From the IMG/VR virus record IMGVR_UViG_3300028888_000047, positions 1 through 64,000 of that record: a DNA stretch of 64,000 nucleotides; one strand, written 5' to 3'. Source of the stretch: a virus (taxonomy: Duplodnaviria > Caudoviricetes). The notes under the pieces were generated by a model that saw only the letters and a program-made list of their open reading frames with translations, ran no database searches and had not been told where the DNA came from. How positions within the stretch are numbered: position 1 is the first letter of the stretch; the number at the start of each line of letters is the position of its first letter. The position numbers and the translations under genes are program-made. Shown here in pieces: positions 4,955 to 34,644 of the stretch.

Positions 4955-5827
4955 TTAAATATTGTTAATACACATCTTTAAATCTTCTACAACTATTGGA
5001 TTCTTAACCAACTCATGCGTACCATCTTTATATTCAATATCAATACTGTTATCATCAAATTGTTTAATATCTGATATTAGGGAACAAACAAATTCTCTTT
5101 CCTCATAACTAAACAAATACGGTGATATTTCTAATAATTCTAAAACGCATAATGGCTCAGATAATTCTCCATAAAGATTAATTACACTCTTATCGCCAAT
5201 GCATTTATTTCTAGTTGCTAACGATTTCTCATAATTATTGAAAAACGTTTCCCACCTGAAAGTAAATAACTCAAGACTAGAATCATTTATTATTAGTCTA
5301 TTTCCAAAGTCTTTCCAAGTAAGACTTGTTTCAGACTCATGATTTGATACATTATCAATTCTTGGTCTAATAACAAACCAACAATCACCTCCCAACTCCT
5401 TTACCAAATCAAGTTCATTTGGAAACCTAACATCATCTATCACATAGTTTTTAGATGGGCTAATCATTTCACGTATTCTATTAACGTGCCAATTGGTATT
5501 GTATTTCCTTATTAAATCAGTTCCAATAAATTGCAGCATGTGCCTGGCATCTTTGATAACAACACCATCACATGTTTTATTGACAATATCTAACGGTATT
5601 TCCGTTTTTTCAGAAATTAATTTACATAAATCATTTCCAACAACAATGCCAATTTCAGTTTTATCTGCTTTTAACTTATTTAACTCATCTATGGAAATAT
5701 CTAATAAATCAGCACATAGTTGTTTTAATGGTAGAGCAAAATATAATTTCTCATACCCATATTTTTCACATATGTTGGCCAACTCCGTTTTACCACTTCT
5801 CATTCGGCCTGAAAATCCCAATATCAT
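4955..5827 (-). CDS. Deoxynucleoside monophosphate kinase-like
   Basis: P-loop GRMRSGKT, FALPLK, LQFIGTD, DDVRFPNE, HESE. Confidence 0.85.
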   Translation of the reverse strand: MILGFSGRMRSGKTELANICEKYGYEKLYFALPLKQLCADLLDISIDELNKLKADKTEIGIVVGNDLCKLISEKTEIPLDIVNKTCDGVVIKDARHMLQFIGTDLIRKYNTNWHVNRIREMISPSKNYVIDDVRFPNELDLVKELGGDCWFVIRPRIDNVSNHESETSLTWKDFGNRLIINDSSLELFTFRWETFFNNYEKSLATRNKCIGDKSVINLYGELSEPLCVLELLEISPYLFSYEEREFVCSLISDIKQFDDNSIDIEYKDGTHELVKNPIVVEDLKMCINNI

Positions 5828-7605
5828 CTTTTAATAAAACGTCTTTTAAAAATGTCATTAAACCCAACACCTGAACTATTATTATTCATCATTGGTATTA
5901 CCTTATATTCCTCCTTTGGCTTGTCTATTTTAGTTGCATGTCTAATTATATCATTGGCAATGAATTCGTTGTTTATTTCAATCTTTCTTTTATCTTTCTT
6001 AAGAACATAATTAACTTGACTTTCTATCTTCTTTAAACTACTAACTGTTTCAGAAACTTTTTTGTTGAACGCATCGAATTCCTTTTCATCAATAAAACCA
6101 AGTACATTTTTTGCCCTTGTATAAGCGACATACATCAAATTATATTCCTGTCTTATTTCCCAATCTTTTTTAGCCTTACTACTTGGCATTAAGCTCTTAC
6201 AAGCAATATAAACATTATCAGCCTCTAAACCCTTTGCCTTATGAATTGTGGAAAGAGAAATACCACCCTTCTTTCTATCAGAAAATATATTGCTTATTTT
6301 CTCTATTAATTCAGTTGCTGTGTTAATATCATCAGAAAGAATTTCCAAAGCCTTAATCATATCAAGCCTATTTGATATTGCAGCAGAATCAACAGCATCA
6401 GCATATGTTACATTGTACTTACATACTATTTCATTTATCATATCAAATAATGTGTCATACAATCTAACGAATACACCATCTTCTTGCAAACTTTTATTAA
6501 GCACTTCAATACCAGTTCTCTTAACCATATTTTTAAGGTTTAATCCAATATCTTTTCCCCTTATAAAACATTTTTTGCCTTGCTTAATAAAATCAACATA
6601 TACTTGCATTAATGGGGCATTATTTCTGCATAATACCATATCACCATCTTGTATTACATCAAGACCAACATCATATTTAATTTCACCTTCTCTACCATCA
6701 TTATTTGGCTCAATGGTAGGAACAATCTTCTGAGCAAAAACAACAATGTTCTTTGCGCATCTATAAGATATTGATAATGGTAAAGATGTTGTGTTTGGTA
6801 GTTCTTTTAGCATCTTAAACGATTCCGGGTCACTGCTTGCAAAACTATATAGCGCTTGCTCAGAATCGCCAAAGAAAAGCATTCTTGTGTTAATTTTCCT
6901 ACACTTCAATATAATTTCACGCTGACACACTGAAAGGTCTTGAGCCTCATCCAATATAATCCAATCATACAACATTCCATATGGCTTGCAATAAAGGACG
7001 TTTGGAAGCCATATCATATCAGTATAATCAATCTGTGAAAGGTTTTTCTTACCATAGTCAAGAATATCTAAGGCAACTTCCTTTTCATCAGCTATAGATA
7101 CTATATCATACCTATCCTCGATAAACTCCAAATCTTTTACTGTTTCACAAAGATAACACCTACCAAAATTAATAAATGCTTCAATATTTGACATATACCT
7201 AGCAAAATCCCTTTTACTTAGCTCATATGTGTTAATTGAAGATAAAGATTTTATATTTGTGTTAAGATATGATTTGTACTTAAATTCATCAAGAATCAAT
7301 TCTTCTTTTGGGAAATTACGTTGAAGCATTTGTAATCCTAATCCATGAAGTGTTGAAATGGTTACATTTGGTCTATCTTTTGCTTTTTTCTTTAACTCTG
7401 TAACTATATCACGATTAAACGCTGTAAGTAATATGCTTTTATCTTCAGGTATTTCTTCTATACACTTCATTATGGTATAACTTTTACCTGTGCCTGCATT
7501 TGCTTCAACAACTAAATTGCCATTTCCATTCTTTACAAAATCAATAATTGCCAATTGATAATTGCTTAAAACATAATCATCATACTTGTTCTTTTTCTTA
7601 GCCAT
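5824..7605 (-). CDS. UvrD/Rep-like superfamily 1 helicase
   Basis: ANAGTGKS, DEAQD, GDSEQ, SYRC, STIHKAKGLE, YVAYTRAK. Confidence 0.92.
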   Translation of the reverse strand: MAKKKNKYDDYVLSNYQLAIIDFVKNGNGNLVVEANAGTGKSYTIMKCIEEIPEDKSILLTAFNRDIVTELKKKAKDRPNVTISTLHGLGLQMLQRNFPKEELILDEFKYKSYLNTNIKSLSSINTYELSKRDFARYMSNIEAFINFGRCYLCETVKDLEFIEDRYDIVSIADEKEVALDILDYGKKNLSQIDYTDMIWLPNVLYCKPYGMLYDWIILDEAQDLSVCQREIILKCRKINTRMLFFGDSEQALYSFASSDPESFKMLKELPNTTSLPLSISYRCAKNIVVFAQKIVPTIEPNNDGREGEIKYDVGLDVIQDGDMVLCRNNAPLMQVYVDFIKQGKKCFIRGKDIGLNLKNMVKRTGIEVLNKSLQEDGVFVRLYDTLFDMINEIVCKYNVTYADAVDSAAISNRLDMIKALEILSDDINTATELIEKISNIFSDRKKGGISLSTIHKAKGLEADNVYIACKSLMPSSKAKKDWEIRQEYNLMYVAYTRAKNVLGFIDEKEFDAFNKKVSETVSSLKKIESQVNYVLKKDKRKIEINNEFIANDIIRHATKIDKPKEEYKVIPMMNNNSSGVGFNDIFKRRFIKR

Positions 7606-9123: not shown

Positions 9124-10401
9124 TTAAGCAAATCCATAATATTTTTTCCTTATTTCAACCAATAAATCATTTACAAGATTGACATCAATCTCATCAGGAA
9201 TTTTAGAATTGGCAATTGCCTCATTGAGTTCGTTTTCCTCTTTGCTCACCAATTCCATAATTTCATCATATTCAAATTTATGATGCCTAATATCCATGAT
9301 AAGGTCTCTGTCACCGGCAATCCTTCTGTCAAGAATAATACCATCACCTTTTGCAATTTCCTTACCCATACGCATAAGTCTAACACAATGGTACATATTC
9401 TTTGAGTCGTAATTCTTATTCAAATTACTTTCATACCTTCTAGGATTTCTCTCTTTCTCCCAATCCTTATATTCCTTGTATAATCTACAATGAGCCTTAA
9501 ATCCACTCTCATTGTATGTCATCCAACAAAGTGGCTTTTCTCCCTTAGAAACAGAAGAGCCTCGCATATCAGTAGAGTTTTCAAGACACATTCCACGATA
9601 ATGCTTTACCTCCTTGTTATCATCGAACCACTTGTTAAAAGTCTCCCAGTTGGTTAATTCATACTTGAATACAATAAAGTGAGACAAACGTCCAAGTTCA
9701 TCGCCACTAACAGTCTCACTTGAGTACCCATTAAACAGCATTTCAGCAGTAATACCCTTAGCCTCGAAATGAGCACCCCAGTCATAATATACACCATATA
9801 CATCATGCATATTAGGAATATGAACAAGCCCACAGAAATCCTTTTCAAGTCCACGATTCCACAGCCAATCCTTTATCTTAGTGCTACCCTGGTTATAGAA
9901 AGTGTATGCAAAATCAAACGGAGTCAGCCTTTCATAAATAGGGTTAACAATTTTCTTATTTAATCCCCTAGCCTTTTTAATCTGTTCAATAGCATATTGA
10001 ATGAAAGGTCTGAAACACGCTTTTGTTACGAACTTATCTCTATTTGCAAATAAACCATCAAGACACTTATGAGGCTTAATAATCATCATGTCTTCAGGAA
10101 CAAATAAAGACTCAAGCACATTTGCATTCGATGACAATAACATACTCATGTACTTTCCAACTTCGTAAATCACATTGTCTGCCTTATCATCACCGATTTG
10201 TGACGAATAAAGGTCTATTACCCCTTTGTATCTATCACGGAATTGCTTATCGAACCCTAACCCAAACATTTCATCTGGCGTGGCAATGAATAAACCCTTA
10301 GTATCTACATCAGAGCCTTCTTCATTACAATGGTATAATGTACTGCCAGCGACATACTGATACAGTAGTCTATTTTCGCTTTTGATATTTTCTATTGTCA
10401 T
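9124..10401 (-). CDS. Pol-beta superfamily nucleotidyltransferase (RlaP/YcgL-like)
   Basis: GSTLY...SDVDTKG motif; C-terminal KNMYHCVRL. Confidence 0.8.
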   Translation of the reverse strand: MTIENIKSENRLLYQYVAGSTLYHCNEEGSDVDTKGLFIATPDEMFGLGFDKQFRDRYKGVIDLYSSQIGDDKADNVIYEVGKYMSMLLSSNANVLESLFVPEDMMIIKPHKCLDGLFANRDKFVTKACFRPFIQYAIEQIKKARGLNKKIVNPIYERLTPFDFAYTFYNQGSTKIKDWLWNRGLEKDFCGLVHIPNMHDVYGVYYDWGAHFEAKGITAEMLFNGYSSETVSGDELGRLSHFIVFKYELTNWETFNKWFDDNKEVKHYRGMCLENSTDMRGSSVSKGEKPLCWMTYNESGFKAHCRLYKEYKDWEKERNPRRYESNLNKNYDSKNMYHCVRLMRMGKEIAKGDGIILDRRIAGDRDLIMDIRHHKFEYDEIMELVSKEENELNEAIANSKIPDEIDVNLVNDLLVEIRKKYYGFA

Positions 10402-23345: not shown

Positions 23346-23637
23346 ATAGATTGATGTTTGGTTTGTCATAAATGATGTTGTTTTTCAAAACGTGTTGTCT
23401 GCGAAGATGGCACGTTTTTTATATGTTAATTAAATGTTAAATCCACCAAAATATTTGGTGGTTTCAATTTTTATTGTTATCTTTGAAGTGGGCAGCCAGG
23501 AAGAGCACGTGAGGAGGCGTTGGTGAACTGTAAATGATTCGAATGTTAATTAAATGTTAATAATACAATATTATTTGGCTATATCATTTTTTATTATTAT
23601 CTTTAAGCATCAATTAAAAATAAAAGAGATTAGAATT

Positions 23638-23850
23638 ATGAAAAAGTATTGGTTATTAAACGTGGCTGGTGTCGGTGGTTATTCCATCATGGTACACTGC
23701 GAAGCAAACACAATTGAAGAAGCAGTTTGCAAAGCAGCAGAAGCAGACCTCTTTGATGATGAAGATGATGCTGAAAGAGCGTGGGGTGAAGAAGCAGATG
23801 ATGATACAATCAAGCATTTCAATAAATATGGTTTAACTCACGAACTTTAA
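23638..23850 (+). CDS. Acidic hypothetical protein (start MKKYW)
   Basis: Promoter at 23598 precedes ATG at 23638. Confidence 0.7.
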   Translation: MKKYWLLNVAGVGGYSIMVHCEANTIEEAVCKAAEADLFDDEDDAERAWGEEADDDTIKHFNKYGLTHEL

Positions 23851-24332
23851 GATATGGAAAAGGTTAAATGCGTTAGTTGCGGCTCCGATGTTGAGATTAA
23901 TATCTCAAAAGCCGTAGATGAACATGGTGAGGTGTTCCTTTGTCCAAATTGTGGTAAAAAGTTCAGATACACCAATAAATAAATTCTTGTGTTAAAAATG
24001 TTAATTCACTTGCATATATAAGAATTTATTCATATCTTTGCATCGTCAAAATAAAATTAATGTATAACAATTAAAAAACAAATAGTAAAATGAAGAAGTT
24101 GATTTAATAGTAGCAATTAATTAGCCAGTAGGTGCAATAAAAGTAATAAGACCTCGCACAGGCAACCCACAATGGTGTGGAAGTAATGTGTAAATAGAGT
24201 ATCTTATAATCCTACCTATCCTCAAAGTGCGGAGATAGTATCTAATTAATAGAGGGCAGCACCAAGCGAAGCCAAAAAGGAGTTGAAACCACTCTATCAA
24301 AGGTCGTGATTGCGGTAATCGACATATAAAAA

Positions 24333-24405
24333 GACTCGTTAGCTCAGTTGGTAGAGCACAACACTTTTAATGTTGGGGTCTTGGGTTCGAACCCCAAACG
24401 AGTCA
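24333..24405 (+). tRNA. tRNA-Lys(TTT)
   Basis: Full cloverleaf, GACTCGT/ACGAGTC acceptor, anticodon loop CTTTTAA, TTCGAAC T loop; no encoded CCA. Confidence 0.95.
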
Positions 24406-24697
24406 CGAAGAATTTATTATAAGATTTTTGTTTTGTATTTGAAGCGTGTTGCCTGCGAAGGCAACACGTTTTTCTTTTTATACATATTCATTTCAATTGC
24501 CTCACCTTGGTGAACAACCCTTTCACCTGTTTTCCCACCTCAAAGATAATAAATTTAATCCAATCTTGCAAATTTTTATTGTTAATTGATGTTAAAGAAA
24601 AAAGTTTTTTTATTAACATTTTTTACATATATTTTTTTGGAAATTAGAAATAAAATGATTATCTTTCCAACGTTAAACATTTAAATTTATATTAATT

Positions 24698-25369
24698 ATG
24701 TACAGCAATCAAATTTCAGACATCAAGGACTTCGCAAGAGGAATCAAGCGTGGTACATTTGGTTTGTATTGCGCAACGTTCACCGAAAAGAAGATGAACA
24801 AGTACCCAAATGGCACAATGCCTGCTGAGCGCAAGACAACCCCCGAAAACCCTTATTTGGGTAAGGTGTTCACCCTATCAGTATATCAGAACGCATGCAC
24901 GGGCGTAAACTATTATAATGTAGTAAAAAGTGAGTGCAAGCGTGAAGGAATCAGTTTTACTGATGAAGAGTTTGCAATAGCATTCCCAAAAGAGGGAACG
25001 TATTGCGAAGCAACCGAAGATGCGCTTGCAAACATCATCTTAAAGCACAACGACAAAGACCAAGAGTATCTTCGTCTTTACAAAGGCCGCAAACCCACAA
25101 AGGTGGTGTATTTCACAATCTACAATTATTCAATAGTTCCCGAAGACAGCGAACTGATGGCTGACATCAAGCGTTACGTTCCGGCCAAGAAGGAAAGCGC
25201 AAAACAAGAAGCTTTGGGAATCACCAATATTGTGGAAGTGAAACAGCCAAAGATTGAAAACGTGGTGTTCCTTGCGCAAGGTGATGACATCTATATCAAC
25301 CCTCGATTTGGAGTGCAAGCAATGTTCAATCTTGACAGCATTAACAAGATGTTCGCGCCCAAGAAGTAA
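24698..25369 (+). CDS. Hypothetical early protein
   Basis: 223 aa, own promoter; YLRLY motif. Confidence 0.8.
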   Translation: MYSNQISDIKDFARGIKRGTFGLYCATFTEKKMNKYPNGTMPAERKTTPENPYLGKVFTLSVYQNACTGVNYYNVVKSECKREGISFTDEEFAIAFPKEGTYCEATEDALANIILKHNDKDQEYLRLYKGRKPTKVVYFTIYNYSIVPEDSELMADIKRYVPAKKESAKQEALGITNIVEVKQPKIENVVFLAQGDDIYINPRFGVQAMFNLDSINKMFAPKK

Positions 25370-25672
25370 TGGGTACTTAATTAAGTACGTAGTTGGATTT
25401 TGTAGCATAGGCATTTTAATTTTTTGATTGAAGCACGCTGCTCATGAGAGTGGCGTGTTTTTTTTATATTTATTAACATTAAAAATTTGGCTATTTCAGT
25501 TTTTATTGTTATCTTTGAAATGGGCAAACAGAAGACGCTCGTGAAGAGGCGTATGAATACAGTAAACATTCAAATGTTAATAAAATGTTAAAGTGGGAAA
25601 AATATTTGGTAATATCAAATTTAATTATTATCTTTCAAGCGTTAAGTTAAACAATTAAATAAATAAGGTATT

Positions 25673-25864
25673 ATGAAGATTAAAGGCTTAAAGAAGTGTG
25701 GAATGGTTGCCGAGAAAGTCAAGGGCAAGAACGGCAAGGTGTATGAGACCGGTGAGCAGATTCAGCAGTATGTGGCTCCTGATGGCTTCAAAGGAACGTA
25801 CAATAGATTCATTAGAGAAGCTGAACGCGGCAATCTTCACGGCTGCATAATTGCTTCAAGTTAA
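25673..25864 (+). CDS. Hypothetical protein
   Basis: Promoter at 25629. Confidence 0.7.
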   Translation: MKIKGLKKCGMVAEKVKGKNGKVYETGEQIQQYVAPDGFKGTYNRFIREAERGNLHGCIIASS

Positions 25865-26009
25865 CATATAGAAGTTGTTGGGTACTGAAAGCATTTAAGA
25901 TTAATCCCCAACGCTTCAAGTGTTAAAAAAGTGTTAAAGTCACGAAAAAATTTGGATATATCAAAAAAAATGATTATCTTTGCAACGTAAACAATAAAAA
26001 ACAAATAAT

Positions 26010-26135
26010 ATGAGCAAGAAAAGTTTTAAGAAATCAACGAAATTAAAGCGAGTGATAGCAATCCCCGGACGTGTCATTAAGAACTCCAAGGGAGAGGTAG
26101 TTAAACAGCTTTACAATATCCTCAAAGTAGGATAA
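26010..26135 (+). CDS. Small basic ORF (41 aa, MSKKSFKKSTK...)
   Basis: Promoter at ~25975 and A-rich leader. Confidence 0.5.
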   Translation: MSKKSFKKSTKLKRVIAIPGRVIKNSKGEVVKQLYNILKVG

Positions 26136-26224
26136 AGTTCCAACAAAGGTTAACGGCAAACTAAATGTAGCTAATTAATGCGGAATGTCGGTTAAAGCCG
26201 TTACGGTAGGATAAAACAAACCAC

Positions 26225-26342
26225 AGCGAATGGAACATCGGCCACTCGGCCAATTCTCTAAGTCCCGAGCCGCCACTATCCAAAGCGAATGGAACATCGG
26301 CCACTCGGCCAATTCTCTAAGTCCCGAGCCGCCACTATCCAA
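26225..26342 (+). repeat. Perfect 59-bp tandem duplication
   Basis: AGCGAATGGAAC...ACTATCCAA twice. Confidence 0.95.
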
Positions 26343-26499
26343 GAATGGGGAAACCTACCTTTACCTTTTTTAACTAATTAAAACGTAACAGTGAGCGTAT
26401 GAAGAGAAATAAACCTCCGCCCTAAAGGGATTATATGATATTTAATTAGATTTTTTATGAATACTATGATAGTGAATACAATGAGACGAATAATGATTA

Positions 26500-27007
26500 G
26501 AGGCCGACCCTAAAGGTCTCTCCCAAGCTATCTGAGCAATGAATGAGTTTAGGCTGATAATAGTGCGAGAAAGGCAAACCTCATTGGCAAGGATTGGCTT
26601 ATCAGCGTAATCGATAGCACCGCCCCCATATAAATAATCCGGAGTATTGAAAGAGGGTAGGTGAGTGCAACAAGGTGAATCTCGGCCGGACTGATGGGCG
26701 GAGTACGAGGTTGCACAAATTAATAGGGCGCGTTGGTCTGCCATTTGGCTCTGTTGCGTTGACAACGATGCCATAGATAGGCCGCTCGTTTGCGCCCATA
26801 TTCAAAGGGGTTTAGGGCCGCCACCCATTCGCGCTTTACAAAGCGGTAATTTTTAGGCACGCCCGTTGCACCGCCGTTGCGGCGCATCACCCCACACTTT
26901 TTAACAGGGCATAGTGCCGATATTATTCGGCTCGCGTAATTAATGATGCCCAACAAAAGGGGAATTGCCCCGCCCAACGGTAATATCACACCGCAGGGTT
27001 AGGTCTC
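26500..27007 (+). ncRNA. Large (~510 nt) structured ncRNA, unclassified
   Basis: GC-rich island; the two ends pair (GAGGCCGACCCT with AGGGTTAGGTCTC); many internal helices; abuts a tRNA-like gene. Confidence 0.7.
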
Positions 27008-27023
27008 CCCTTTTACTTTTTCT

Positions 27024-27207
27024 CTTTCTTTAGCTCAGTTGGTAGAGCATCACGGCAGAGTGCTATAGGAAACAAATGCCTCAAGTTCATAGGAAACAAA
27101 CGCCTCCAAAGTGAGGAAGCCGTACGAATAAAGAGTTCCTGGTAAGTTCTCCGTTTGTTTAACTATGATAAACGTGAAGGTCGTTGGTTCGAGTCCAACA
27201 AGTTAGA
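27024..27207 (+). tRNA. tRNA-like gene with 118-nt insertion replacing the anticodon loop
   Basis: Canonical D arm and T arm; TCACG/CGTGA anticodon stem; acceptor stem with two U-U mismatches. Confidence 0.75.
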
Positions 27208-27517
27208 GCAAATACTTTGCTTTCATAATTTGTTAGTTTTTGATTGTTTGACACGAAGGTGTAGCTTAATTGCTACGCCTTTTGTCGTATATATGCTTTT
27301 CGACGACAGAACCTTGGTGATACAACCCTTTTATTTGTTTCCCCACTTCAAAGATAATCATTTTTATTGAATCTTGCAAATTTTTATTGTTAATTGATGT
27401 TAATAACAGTAAGAAAAAATATTTCAAATTTTAAGTTTTTTTAATAATAAAAATTTTGAAATTTGAAATTAAAATATTATCTTTCAGGCGTTAAACAATT
27501 AAATAATATAATAATGT

Positions 27518-27736
27518 ATGGCAACAAAGAAACATATATGTGGCATATACAAAGGTTATAAGATTATTCAAGAATATGAACAAATTGGTAACGGCATATA
27601 TGGAATATTCTATCCTTGCGTTAAAAAGCGTAACAGGTGGTATAAAAGAAAAAACTTTGGTTCAACAAAGTTAGAAAGTTTAAAAAAATGTATTGATATT
27701 TGGGAAAAAGAGAAAGAACAAACAACAATTAAATAA
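27518..27736 (+). CDS. Hypothetical protein
   Basis: Promoter at 27478. Confidence 0.7.
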   Translation: MATKKHICGIYKGYKIIQEYEQIGNGIYGIFYPCVKKRNRWYKRKNFGSTKLESLKKCIDIWEKEKEQTTIK

Positions 27737-27744
27737 CTAAAGTT

Positions 27745-28020
27745 ATGGAAACAATTAAAGGAAAAACGGTTCAAGTTCTTACTATTGATTGGATTGATGA
27801 TTGTTCAACAATTCGTCAAAGTGTAGATACATTTGAAGATGTTGAAGATGCTCGCAAGGCATTATCACAGTTTGATGCGGAAGTAAATGATTGGGTTAAA
27901 TCAACACGTCCCGATTGGAAACGTGAAGGTGATGGAATTAATTTCGTTGAATATGGAAAAGAAGGATATTACTTTGATTCTCACGCTGTTGCAAAAATAA
28001 CAATGAGTGTTGTTAAGTAA
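27745..28020 (+). CDS. Hypothetical protein
   Basis: Operonic ORF. Confidence 0.7.
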   Translation: METIKGKTVQVLTIDWIDDCSTIRQSVDTFEDVEDARKALSQFDAEVNDWVKSTRPDWKREGDGINFVEYGKEGYYFDSHAVAKITMSVVK

Positions 28021-28334
28021 GGTACTTAATTAAGTGCATATATAATATAAATAATGTACGCGCGAAGGTCAAATGTTAATTAAATGTTAAACCTGAAAAA
28101 AAATTTGGAGAATTGAAAATTAATTATTATCTTTCGCTCAGAAATTAAAAATGAGAATTAAAAAATAGAAAATTAAAACTTAAAAATTAAAATTTGAAAT
28201 GAAACGTTAAAGAAAAGTTAAAATCGAAAAAAAATTTGGAGATTAAAAAATAAATGATTATCTTTCAAGCACAAAATTAAAAACGAATAAAAAATCAATT
28301 AAGTTAAACAATTAAATTATAGGAGATTAAAACT

Positions 28335-29066
28335 ATGGCAAAAAACGTTTGTACTAACAAGAGTTTGATTAAGGCAGAGATTAACCACTATCTGGAACTG
28401 CTTCGTAACGCAATCGCATTCAATGGTCGTTCTCACGTTCCCGTGTACTTCGCAGGCGTTCACAAGGAGGCCATCGAAGCCATCAAGGAAATGGGCATCA
28501 AGGTCGAGGAAAAGGCCGGTCGCTGGACTACCAAGTTCTATGCACCTAAGAAGGGTACTAAGGCGTGGAACACCCTTTTCAACGGCTCAAAGGTTTTGGA
28601 AGAGGCCAAGGCTCACAACGAGGCCAAGGTAGCTGCTGCTAAGGCAGAGAAGGAGGCCAAGGCTGCTAAGGCTAAGGCTAAGGCTGAAAAGAAGGCTGCT
28701 AAGGAGAAGGAGGCCAAGGCTAAGGCTGCTGCTAAGGCAGAGAAGGAGGCCAAGGCTGCTAAGGAGAAGGAGGCCAAGGCTAAGGCTGCTGCTAAGGCTG
28801 CTAAGGCTGAAAAGAAGACTGCTGCTGCTAAGGCTGCAAAGCCCAAGAAGGATGCAACCGTGAAGGCCGCAAAGCCCAAGACCGAGAAGAAGGCTGCTGC
28901 TAAGGCTGCAAAGCCCAAGAAGGAGACCAAGCCAAAGGCTGAAAAGAAGGCTGCTGCTAAGGCTGCTAAGGAGACCAAGCCAAAGGCTGATGCTGCTCCA
29001 AAGGCTGCTCCTGCTCCAACAGCCGAGCCTGCTCCAACAGCCGAGCCTGCTAAGACTGAGGCTTAA
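28335..29066 (+). CDS. Histone H1-like Ala/Lys/Pro-rich protein
   Basis: ~90-aa globular N-terminus, then AKAAK/KPK repeats; strongly biased GCT/AAG codons. Confidence 0.8.
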   Translation: MAKNVCTNKSLIKAEINHYLELLRNAIAFNGRSHVPVYFAGVHKEAIEAIKEMGIKVEEKAGRWTTKFYAPKKGTKAWNTLFNGSKVLEEAKAHNEAKVAAAKAEKEAKAAKAKAKAEKKAAKEKEAKAKAAAKAEKEAKAAKEKEAKAKAAAKAAKAEKKTAAAKAAKPKKDATVKAAKPKTEKKAAAKAAKPKKETKPKAEKKAAAKAAKETKPKADAAPKAAPAPTAEPAPTAEPAKTEA

Positions 29067-29122
29067 ACCAAACAAATGCAAGGGTGGGAAACTACCTGCC
29101 CTTGCTTTATTAAAAAATTAAA

Positions 29123-29437
29123 ATGAATGTTTTTTTAAAAGAAAATAATATGATTGATAAAGATAACGCAAAAACCATTTCAATATTGGTATGTTTCGAG
29201 GGCAAAAATCGTCGTATCGAAATCAACCCAAAGAAGTGTGTAACCAACGCAAACAAGGACTTTTCGTACAGCGCGCAATATAAGGCTGACAATGGTAAGA
29301 CCTATTTGGTTAAGGTGGTGTCCATCAATGGAACCGAGGGCGCAAAGGCTGATGTTACTATCACAAATCGTAGCGGTAAGCAAATGATTGCCGAGCGTCA
29401 CGGGGTAGATGTAAGATTCCACCGCTACATTTTCTAA
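29123..29437 (+). CDS. Hypothetical protein
   Basis: 104-aa ORF. Confidence 0.7.
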   Translation: MNVFLKENNMIDKDNAKTISILVCFEGKNRRIEINPKKCVTNANKDFSYSAQYKADNGKTYLVKVVSINGTEGAKADVTITNRSGKQMIAERHGVDVRFHRYIF

Positions 29438-29563
29438 GACTATGTTGCTGCGCTATACAATGGGGCAAATTGCCCCTTATTTTGCCTTGTTTAAGGAAGG
29501 CTTATTTCGTGCGTATGGCCCTCAATATAGGCCAAAACGAACAAAATTAAAAGGGTATCAAAA

Positions 29564-29959
29564 ATGCAAGAAAAAAAGACGTTAGCTGACGGCATTCACA
29601 ACAAAATACGCAATCTTTTCTTATGGTCTGCTGTAAATAAGCCAGACTATATCGTAGGGAAAATTTCAGAATATCTTGAAATACCTATTGATTCAATCAA
29701 GCTAAGAGAGGAAAGAAGCGTAAAAGGCGATGACGGCGAAATAGCATATTCAATGTACACCTTGCTTGTGTGTGATTCAGAGTTTATACTGCGCTTTACA
29801 CGCAAGGTAGAAGAGCCAAAAGAAATTGAAGTGCCAAAGGTCGTTAATAAGCCTAAGAAATGGTATCAATTTGGAGAGCCTGAAACTGAGGTTATAATAG
29901 AAAAACAGCCTTCAAAAGAAAAGCCACGTGTGTATTGGTTATTGTCTTCGGTAGAATAA
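29564..29959 (+). CDS. Hypothetical protein
   Basis: 131-aa ORF followed by hairpin. Confidence 0.7.
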   Translation: MQEKKTLADGIHNKIRNLFLWSAVNKPDYIVGKISEYLEIPIDSIKLREERSVKGDDGEIAYSMYTLLVCDSEFILRFTRKVEEPKEIEVPKVVNKPKKWYQFGEPETEVIIEKQPSKEKPRVYWLLSSVE

Positions 29960-30150
29960 ATAAAATGCTGCTCAAAAAAGAGTAGCATTTTTTACATTTA
30001 TTAACACCAAAAATTTGGCGCTTTAATTTTAAATGATTATCTTTGATGTGGGAAAATAAATGAAGGCGTTGTAACACCAAGATGAAAAAATAAGAGAATA
30101 ATTTGGTTTTCTCAATATTTATTTGTATATTTGTAAGAGTTAAACAATAT

Positions 30151-30234
30151 GGCCGCATGGCGGAATTGGTAGACGCGAGGGACTTAAAATCCCTTGGGCA
30201 TTTGCCCGTCCGGGTTCGAGTCCCGGTGTGGCCA
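30151..30234 (+). tRNA. tRNA-Leu(TAA)
   Basis: Cloverleaf with long variable arm, anticodon loop CTTAAAA; own promoter at 30126. Confidence 0.95.
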
Positions 30235-30508
30235 CATTTATTTTTTCATGTTGTAGTTTTAAATGGCTTTCGCTCATCACGAGCGGGAGCCATTTTTCCT
30301 TTCATGCCACTCCCTGTGGAGGAACTCATTAGTATCCTATTGTTCCTACCTCAAAGATAACAGTATTTTTTCAAATATCCAAATATTTTCTTGTGTTTAA
30401 CACTATTTTAACACTTATGTTAATTAAATGTTAAAATTGAAATTTTATTTTGTTTTTAAAAAATAAATGCTTATCTTTCCCACGTTAAACAATTAAATTA
30501 ATATTAAT

Positions 30509-34308: not shown

Positions 34309-34450
34309 AGTGTTAAAGAAATGTTAAAAATTGGATTTCATTTCTTTATCCAATTTTTTTCTTGTATATTTGCAATGTTGAAAGACAAAAAGATAACGAA
34401 TTAAGTCGCCAAGCGTCTGACCGCGTAAGTCTATATGCTTTCAACATCAT

Positions 34451-34529
34451 CGCTGAGAAGCTGAATATTGGCAAAAGCGCAAGGTGGTAAAACATCTTGA
34501 AACAATAGGTTCAAATCCTATCACAGCGG
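34451..34529 (+). ncRNA. tRNA-like RNA 1 (extended anticodon arm, TGGTAAA tip)
   Basis: CGCTGAG/CACAGCG acceptor, GCT/AGC D stem, ATAGG-TTCAAAT-CCTAT T arm. Confidence 0.6.
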
Positions 34530-34535
34530 CTTATT

Positions 34536-34638
34536 TGTGCTTTACCAAAGAAACGGAGGTAACTCTAGGACAAATGGGGCTTATGGTAAATAAGCTGATT
34601 CTACGGAATCTTCACAGGTTCGAATCCTGTAGGCACAA
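34536..34638 (+). ncRNA. tRNA-like RNA 2 (Tyr-GTA-like, expanded D loop, G33)
   Basis: TGTGCTT/AGGCACA; GCTTA-TGGTAAA-TAAGC; GATTC-TACG-GAATC variable arm; ACAGG/CCTGT T stem. Confidence 0.8.
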
Positions 34639-34644
34639 CTTATT

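Follow-up and report, generated by a model that had tools for sequence, protein, structure and literature searches.

A tRNA-like element in which the anticodon loop is replaced by a 118-nt insert lies at positions 27022–27208 of the 64,000-nt window analysed here. The window is the opening 64 kb of an IMG/VR record of 317 kb (IMGVR_UViG_3300028888_000047) which comes from a rumen jumbo phage and by estimate is approximately 95% complete. With a probability of roughly 55%, we consider this element to be a non-decoding, tRNA-like 3′ module of a mosaic and highly expressed non-coding region (approximately 26137–27290), in which the top half of the tRNA has been kept as a handle for processing and stability and the anticodon stem has become the expansion site for a variable domain. 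This reading is carried by a cloverleaf whose pairs covary among relatives, by an anticodon arm which is hypervariable and swapped between genomes, by an insert which is found intact in RNA libraries, and by a position at the end of a cassette such as a tRNA would occupy. The insert is a retained structural domain rather than an intron.

The cloverleaf and its covariation

The element consists of the following parts.

27022–27030, + strand: acceptor stem, 5′ strand; the canonical 7 nt are 27024–27030, with two U·U mismatches
27033–27048, + strand: D arm, GCTC-AGTTGGTA-GAGC, with G18 and G19; the same sequence as the D arm of the tRNA-Lys at 24340
27050–27054, + strand: anticodon stem, 5′ strand, TCACG, which pairs with CGTGA
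27055–27172, + strand: 118-nt insert, made up of a conserved 5′ flank, GCAGAGTGC (27055–27063), a window-specific extra 14 nt (27064–27077) and a Y-shaped domain
27173–27177, + strand: anticodon stem, 3′ strand, CGTGA, completing a 5-bp stem
27178–27199, + strand: variable loop AGGTC and T arm GTTGG-TTCGAGT-CCAAC (27183–27199); pairing in the T stem is complete (100% of cells) across 19 elements
27200–27208, + strand: acceptor stem, 3′ strand; the canonical partner is 27200–27206

The original prediction, made from the letters alone, described canonical D and T arms, a 118-nt insert in the anticodon-loop position with the 3′ end TGATAAA (27166–27172), and an acceptor stem (CTTTCTT/AAGTTAG) with two U·U mismatches; every sequence feature which it listed is present where it was placed. 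The acceptor stem extends beyond the canonical 7 to 9 bp (27022–27030/27200–27208). With the cloverleaf imposed as a constraint the fold has a free energy of −45.9 kcal/mol, at most 1.5 kcal/mol from the unconstrained minimum free energy. At default stringency ARAGORN calls the element only if introns are allowed, as a tRNA-Ile(GAU) with a 109-nt intron, and this is one of two intron-type calls in the whole 317 kb. Together with the homologous cloverleaves, bearing compensatory changes, which occupy the same slot in relatives, these results place the cloverleaf beyond chance. Among the features of a decoding tRNA the element has the cloverleaf with a GG D arm and a TTCRAnT T loop; in place of the expected 7-nt loop (U33, purine at position 37) it has 118 nt.

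The Rfam tRNA model (RF00005, gathering cut-off 29 bits) gave no match on 27022–27208 even at E ≤ 10, Rfam scans at permissive thresholds returned no family for the element or its insert, and blastn against the INPHARED phages found no match. Rfam matches to rli61 and frnS on the trailer downstream of the element were dismissed as mere terminator resemblance.

Relatives were found through a neighbouring 223-aa protein, homologues of which number more than 200 and lie on phage contigs as long as 413 kb. The relatives derive from rumen or gut assemblies of cattle and sheep. The comparison set comprised approximately 20 informative syntenic loci (designated here by L-numbers; G000 is the genome of this phage); a tRNA-like RNA fills the slot on 19 syntenic phage contigs, from which 19 non-redundant slot elements were taken for pairing statistics. 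Common to the loci is the gene order 223-aa gene, small open reading frames (ORFs), a 41-aa mini-ORF, 0.57–1.13 kb of non-coding DNA, tRNA-like element, trailer and terminator hairpin. A tRNA-like element occupies the slot between the non-coding region and the trailer in every locus examined, and in L010, L011 and L045 there are two in tandem. In L010 (8935–9012) and L011 (3174–3251) the second element differs from the first, lies between it and the trailer, and has a 19-nt direct repeat, CAAATACTTTGCTTTCATA, on either side; its absence from the window is probably due to a deletion or duplication between the 19-nt repeats.

The cloverleaves of the homologues were obtained from a descriptor parse and from a covariance model built from 12 elements, and the two were consistent. 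Standard pairs make up 94% of the stem cells in the 19 elements, against 74 ± 1.4% (maximum 78%) after shuffling of the 3′ partners. Double compensatory changes were found in 19 of the 21 stem pairs, with all four stems represented. Across the relatives 7/7 acceptor pairs show compensatory change, and the sequences of this stem are wholly unlike each other and yet paired (CTTTCTT, TCCGCAT, AGCGAAT, GTCGCAT, TGCATAT, TCCCTTT and others). A model-based alignment is biased towards structure; the raw descriptor parse gives a matching pattern. On six short-armed homologues the Rfam tRNA model scores 40–48 bits, above its cut-off, while the real tRNAs of those loci score 53–76 bits. The covariation and these scores argue that the cloverleaf is selected as an RNA and is not a decaying pseudogene. 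The discriminator bases and acceptor stems vary freely among the homologues, which argues against a single conserved aminoacylation identity.

One might still regard the element as a decaying tRNA pseudogene carrying a junk insertion with no function of its own, pointing to its non-canonical anticodon region, the acceptor U·U mismatches, the missing match to the Rfam tRNA model and a tandem duplication in the insert which is private to this phage. We think this quite improbable in view of the compensatory changes in nearly all stem pairs, the retention of a tRNA-like element in the slot of every relative examined, its high depth in RNA libraries, and an insert which is itself conserved with compensatory change. 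The original prediction had held that a normal tRNA in relatives, together with an unexpressed copy here, would mark the element as decayed; the slot contains no normal tRNA, and the copy in this phage is found at high depth in RNA libraries.

The covariance model of the slot elements also matches an array of tRNA-like RNAs with a UGGUAAA loop elsewhere in the window, at 34449–34530 (E 8e-5) and 34534–34639 (E 1e-3), and the 3′ ends of arms in the slot elements (TGGTGA, TGATAA) resemble the UGGUAAA heptamer of this array. A further odd tRNA-like gene, G000:C1:171523–171594 on the minus strand, has a 6-nt anticodon loop, is called “tRNA-???” by ARAGORN, and possesses a T arm near-identical to that of the slot element.

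The anticodon arm and its insert

The anticodon “loops” of the slot elements measure 6, 7, 7, 10, 10, 12 (six elements), 13, 19, 21, 22, 37, 101, 101 and 118 nt, with approximately 103 nt in L052. A canonical 7-nt loop, in which position 33 is U and position 37 a purine, is absent from all the slot elements compared, L052 included. The stem TCACG/CGTGR, the 5′ flank GYAGAGTGC and TGGTGA or TGATAA(A) at the 3′ end characterize one family of arms, which occurs in three forms: a 21–22-nt hairpin (L021, L017), a 37-nt hairpin (L011) and the long insert (the window, L010, L013 and L052). These forms imply that the 118-nt insert is an enlargement of an arm which was already non-canonical, and that it does not interrupt a working anticodon loop.

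Loci L012 and L013 encode an identical 223-aa protein and share approximately 99% identity over 1.1 kb, yet the segment from the D loop through the 3′ strand of the anticodon stem has been replaced whole, giving a 12-nt A-rich loop in the former and a 101-nt insert in the latter. Two helix tips and a block of 62 nt distinguish their upstream RNAs as well. The window, L010 and L011 are likewise mosaics of blocks which are 97–100% identical and blocks which are fully replaced, L010 having the long insert (101 nt) and L011 a different, 37-nt hairpin. That near-identical genomes possess different arms indicates that the arm is swapped as a cassette. The long insert itself diverges by approximately 5% between the window and L013, although the upstream RNAs can barely be aligned, and it is found on three protein backgrounds (100/98%, 91% and 86% identity). 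Its low divergence on these backgrounds points to exchange by recombination or to strong selection. Alignment of homologues, which the original prediction had proposed as a check on variability of the insert, thus reveals a hypervariable arm tip upon a conserved and covarying cloverleaf core.

Within the insert the following features were recognized.

27065–27082 and 27089–27106, + strand: two copies of an 18-nt direct repeat, ATAGGAAACAAAYGCCTC, with a period of 24
27087–27092/27163–27168 (basal) and 27094–27102/27152–27160, + strand: stems of the Y-shaped domain, predicted fold
27103–27116 and 27119–27143, + strand: hairpins of the Y-shaped domain, predicted fold

The direct repeat noted by the original prediction exists at 27065 and 27089. 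It is not a conserved design feature: the other three carriers of the long insert have a single ATAGGAAACAAAY unit, and in comparison with L010, L013 and L052 the 14 additional bases of the window, TATAGGAAACAAAT (27064–27077), are a partial second copy of the 24-nt unit. Since the extra bases are confined to the window, the repeat is lineage-specific; it is not a set of two conserved binding sites. The most favourable fold pairs the second copy, as 5′ strand, with 27152–27168 in a 6+9-bp stem, on top of which sit two hairpins. The suggestion that the insert is a tandem protein-binding decoy is accordingly not borne out, the tandem copy being a duplication specific to the window and the second copy being base-paired inside the insert. 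Pairing of copy 1 in place of copy 2, as an alternative switch, was rejected; it is 8.6 kcal/mol worse and confined to this phage.

The predicted fold of the insert is consistent among its carriers, with compensatory change at one pair (C-G in the window, U-A in L013 and L010, U·G in L052). Searches of the 317-kb genome for antisense or duplicate targets of the insert gave just 10–13-nt chance matches, and no k-mers specific to the carriers, such as would mark a partner module co-occurring with the long insert, were found in the upstream RNA. Exact-pattern scans for the insert and its junction in IMG/VR and the JGI metagenomes returned chance matches in unrelated coding or non-coding DNA and, as the gap of one pattern was too short for long inserts, are uninformative on rarity. 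Two further candidates were rejected. A peptide encoded by the insert would be MPQVHRKQTPPK in the window and MPQVRKPYE in relatives, and its frame is not conserved. A K-turn formed by the conserved flank (CACG-GYA-GA-GUGCC ... GGUGA-CGUG) would require a register which clashes with the hairpin C-G pairs of L021 and L017.

Representation in RNA libraries, cassette position and possible roles

Two metatranscriptomic runs (X1 and X2) from one sheep-gut sample contain 83% and 68% of the sampled words of 26000–27400. Their contigs were placed on 23500–30500; assembled contigs cannot reveal RNA ends or rare isoforms. In X1 a single 898-nt contig at a depth of 532 runs from 26313 to 27210 with no differences from the window; it takes in upstream non-coding RNA and the complete element together with its insert. 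X2 provides contigs at depths of 1185–2070 over 26314–27056. Contigs of flanking protein genes reach depths of 12–92 (X1) and 28–276 (X2). Such unevenness is not expected of contaminating DNA and makes it probable that the region is abundant as RNA. The end of the X1 contig at 27210 is by itself no proof of an RNA end. Neither the break in X2 at 27056 nor the zero RNA contig cover over 27244–27477 was counted as evidence of processing; position 27056 is a C/T site polymorphic among relatives, so that the break is probably an assembly branch. No spliced form lacking the insert was seen in the RNA contigs, from which rare forms could escape. The sole joint across the insert, 27049 to 27179, was rejected as splicing, since its 18 other letters are the anticodon arm of another organism's ordinary tRNA and only 23 letters match one side.

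The possibility that the element is a true tRNA with an intron, for example the tRNA-Ile(GAU) proposed by ARAGORN, which self-splicing or phage RNA-repair enzymes would remove, is difficult to reconcile with these contigs, in which the insert is kept. The ARAGORN call with its 109-nt intron speaks for it; TGATAA at the 3′ end of the insert could supply U33-GAU-A37-A38, and the window encodes an RlaP-family RNA-repair-associated nucleotidyltransferase. The ARAGORN model, however, requires a shifted anticodon stem with a G·A pair, and on homologous elements the same program reports GAU, GGU, GCC, GAA or makes no call. The inconsistent anticodons indicate that the intron models are artefacts of forcing a loop. 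If the canonical TCACG/CGTGA stem is used instead, the window and L052 (2/4 long-insert copies) would be left with an 8-nt loop. No uninterrupted canonical allele exists in the approximately 20 loci, and the phage already has two tRNA-Ile(GAU) genes. A group I intron, with its P3–P9 core, is usually at least 200 nt long. As the original prediction had remarked, the insert of 118 nt is short for a typical intron of this kind; it is too small for a group I core, and neither an intron nor a ribozyme family was found on 26990–27300 at E ≤ 10. The “unusual intron” which it offered as one explanation is thus unsupported, and we regard removal of the insert as highly improbable. Intron-permissive tRNA finders will mis-annotate elements of this kind as intron-containing tRNA-Ile, Thr, Gly or Phe.

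Identity as a transfer-messenger RNA (tmRNA) was also rejected: there is no G3·U70 (the alanine identity pair), no conserved tag frame, no pseudoknots and no ARAGORN or Rfam call. The genome as a whole yields 36 ARAGORN tRNA calls and a tmRNA, the latter at G000:C1:156892–157262; one of the tRNA calls is a suppressor with a CUA anticodon, at G000:C1:154846–154923.

The surroundings of the element are as follows.

25951–25982, + strand: Bacteroidota-type promoter, TTTG-N20-TAtcTTTG; the closest + strand promoter 5′ of the mini-ORF, non-coding region and tRNA-like element
26011–26136, + strand: conserved 41-aa mini-ORF; a gene is called at the equivalent position in most syntenic loci, and it precedes the non-coding region in every relative
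26137–27021, + strand: non-coding, GC-richer, mosaic RNA region of approximately 0.9 kb with apparently at least two domains (26205–26362 and 26500–27007) and a U-rich linker (27008–27021)
27209–27290, + strand: conserved trailer and terminator hairpin; trailer core TTCATAATTTGTTAGTTTTTGATTGTTTGAC at 27222–27252, hairpin at 27256–27283

The trailer is kept 3′ of the tRNA-like element in all relatives, with the consensus TTCATAATTTGTTrGTTTTTGATTGTTTGAC. Downstream of the tRNA-Lys (24333), of the tRNA-like element and of the tRNA-Leu (30151) alike come a short trailer rich in A/T, then a terminator hairpin and a conserved block with a minus-strand promoter. This shared layout indicates that the element holds a tRNA's place at the end of a repeated cassette. 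An encoded CCA is absent from the phage's genuine tRNAs too. Perfect Bacteroidota-type promoters lie on the minus strand at 27349–27380 and 24541–24572, approximately 110–140 nt downstream of the tRNA-like element and the tRNA-Lys, from where they point into the terminator and trailer and towards the antisense strand of the tRNA(-like) gene.

If the element is a non-decoding 3′ module, one would assume that selection retains the acceptor stem, the T arm, the D arm and the 5-bp anticodon stem, the anticodon loop having been given up. The anticodon stem would then be a tolerant expansion site bearing different appendages in each phage lineage, which in this phage would be the 118-nt Y-shaped domain with its private partial tandem duplication. 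The cloverleaf core would presumably be recognized by the tRNA-processing machinery of the host; RNase P might cleave on the 5′ side; on the 3′ side RNase Z or exonucleases might act, or CCA might be added. The result would be a defined 3′ end for the upstream non-coding RNA and detachment of the trailer. The product may be a nuclease-resistant, tRNA-shaped RNA of approximately 187 nt which presents the appended domain and to which a stabilizing role can be ascribed. Cleavage by RNase P/Z defines the ends of transcripts at the tRNA-like processing signals of MALAT1 (mascRNA) and of the tRNA-miRNA transcripts of murine herpesvirus MHV68. The phage element resembles these in being a non-decoding cloverleaf at the end of, or between, non-coding RNAs; those signals belong to eukaryotic or viral nuclear systems, and cleavage of the phage element is putative.

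Several points weigh against this reading. The RNA data are assembled contigs in which 5′ and 3′ ends are not mapped, so that processing by RNase P and RNase Z is pure inference, and the two acceptor U·U mismatches (one in L052) could weaken RNase P recognition. One predicted pair of the insert is broken in L010 and L052, and support for its structure comes from four sequences, too few for statistics. Furthermore, a processing signal alone would explain neither why the insert is conserved to approximately 95% across phages whose flanking RNA can barely be aligned, nor why arm tips differ between near-identical genomes. Conservation of the insert, together with swapping and mobility of the arm, suggests that the appendage may have a function of its own.

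Such a function is the essence of a second reading, in which the released tRNA-shaped RNA of approximately 187 nt carries on its anticodon arm a decoy, sponge or binding platform active in phage-host or phage-phage conflict, for example by titrating a tRNA-targeting nuclease or other RNA-binding factor, the cassettes diversifying under an arms race. No part of the locus varies more than the arm tips, even when genomes of 99% identity are compared, the long insert is only approximately 5% divergent across three protein backgrounds, the topology is that of engineered tRNA scaffolds, and the phage encodes further odd tRNA-like RNAs (34449–34639 and G000 171523). Against it, searches of the phage genome found neither a target nor a partner or complementary site, and none of an upstream-RNA module which varies with presence of the insert was found; plain 6–12-nt loops occur among the cassettes, which means that cargo is not obligatory, and the tandem repeat is private to this phage. 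We hold this reading to be unlikely as it stands. Of the tRNA scaffold displaying a cargo RNA which the original prediction had envisaged, the topology and the comparative pattern (a covarying core with a cassette-swapped, hypervariable arm tip) are upheld and the tandem-decoy detail is not. More speculatively still in its breadth, and with similarly low confidence, rumen jumbo phages may use the tRNA body as a natural display scaffold whose interchangeable anticodon-stem cassettes, from 6-nt loops to the 118-nt Y domain, pass by recombination from one co-circulating phage to another, with conflict driving their diversification. Such cassettes could serve to decoy or soak up tRNA-targeting defences of the host or other factors which bind RNA; or they could be cargo attached to a novel ornate RNA of the phage, much as tRNAs are tethered to GOLLD cages.

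In the engineered tRNA scaffold of Ponchon and Dardel the anticodon stem-loop is reportedly replaced by the cargo RNA; correct processing and nuclease resistance are the gains expected of such scaffolds. As in these constructs the acceptor, D and T arms of the phage element are intact and a foreign structured RNA is placed on the anticodon stem. Unlike them it is natural and phage-encoded, has natural “cargoes” of 6 to 118 nt, and stands at the end of a larger non-coding region. Like tmRNA, it combines a tRNA-like acceptor/T-arm domain with a larger RNA domain on the anticodon side; it differs from tmRNA in its complete D arm and its anticodon stem of 5 bp. It shares with bacterial and phage tRNA genes that contain group I introns an insertion in the anticodon region of a tRNA-shaped gene, from which it differs in having no group I core, in its shortness, in leaving no canonical loop after removal, and in retaining the insert in RNA contigs.

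Alternatively the cloverleaf might remain uncleaved, as a covalent, tRNA-mimicking 3′ domain of the upstream RNA which recruits tRNA-binding machinery or protects the 3′ end. Precedent exists in tRNAs which are covalently linked to GOLLD RNA or lie in its linker (bioRxiv 10.1101/2024.12.08.627333), and ROOL and GOLLD RNAs adjoin tRNA islands (PMC5737381). The single RNA contig is unbroken from 26313 to 27210, and only a 14-nt U-rich linker separates the helix closing the upstream RNA (26995–27007) from the cloverleaf. A contig across two units, on the other hand, does not show that they form one mature RNA, and the tandem tRNA-like elements of L010, L011 and L045 look more like a processed tRNA array; we judge an integral domain distinctly unlikely. 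The locus resembles GOLLD and ROOL in being a large, structured, highly expressed phage non-coding RNA, in a rumen/phage context, which lies beside tRNA-type elements and is probably co-transcribed with them. It differs from GOLLD in that the linked element is non-decoding with an expanded anticodon arm, where GOLLD has a normal tRNA.

A search of the literature found no description of this arrangement. As a non-decoding 3′ module the element would be a natural counterpart of the biotechnologists' tRNA scaffold, placed at the end of a highly expressed and rapidly reshuffling non-coding locus in a large family of 300–410-kb rumen phages. Selection upon the tRNA fold after decoding has been abandoned points to a role for tRNA shape in the processing, stability or recruitment of phage RNA. 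The swapping of arms between 99%-identical genomes is an unusually clean case of modular RNA exchange.

The upstream non-coding region and neighbouring genes

The first domain of the upstream region is closed by GGTAGG (26205) with CCTACC (26353), and the second by 26500–26511 with 26995–27007. The region contains the conserved islands GGTAGGATAAAACAAACCA, TGGGGAAACCTACCTTT, ATAATGATTAGAG and TTAGGCACGCC; the remainder is mosaic even among close relatives. The depth of RNA contigs over it is 532–2070. Minus-strand ORFs of 26137–27021 have no PHROG matches, and Rfam scans, including those at permissive thresholds, identified no large-RNA family for the upstream RNA. A direct search of the whole phage genome for ROOL (RF03087) at E ≤ 10 gave nothing; the control genomes were also matchless, so that absence is not proven.

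The window has a GC content of approximately 31%. The promoter pattern TTTG-N17-23-TANNTTTG occurs 33 times in it, against 6.6 matches expected, and the enriched Bacteroidota-type form is TTTG-N19-21-TAnnTTTG.

The RlaP-family nucleotidyltransferase (Pfam PF10127, E 7e-16) is encoded on the minus strand at 9124–10401, and a UvrD-type helicase on the same strand at 5824–7605. Downstream of the element, 28335–29066 specifies a protein of 243 aa, rich in Lys and Ala, whose sequence is repetitive (KAAK-type) and matches no family; in the RNA runs this region is covered to very high depth, which low-complexity matches from other organisms may have inflated.

Within the upstream RNA, 26216–26333 is a 59-nt tandem duplication, 95% identical and private to this phage, which is present as a single copy in L010 and L011. 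The motif CCAATTCTCTAAG of the 59-nt unit is also found in L020, L024, L025 and L031, and once more at G000 222979.
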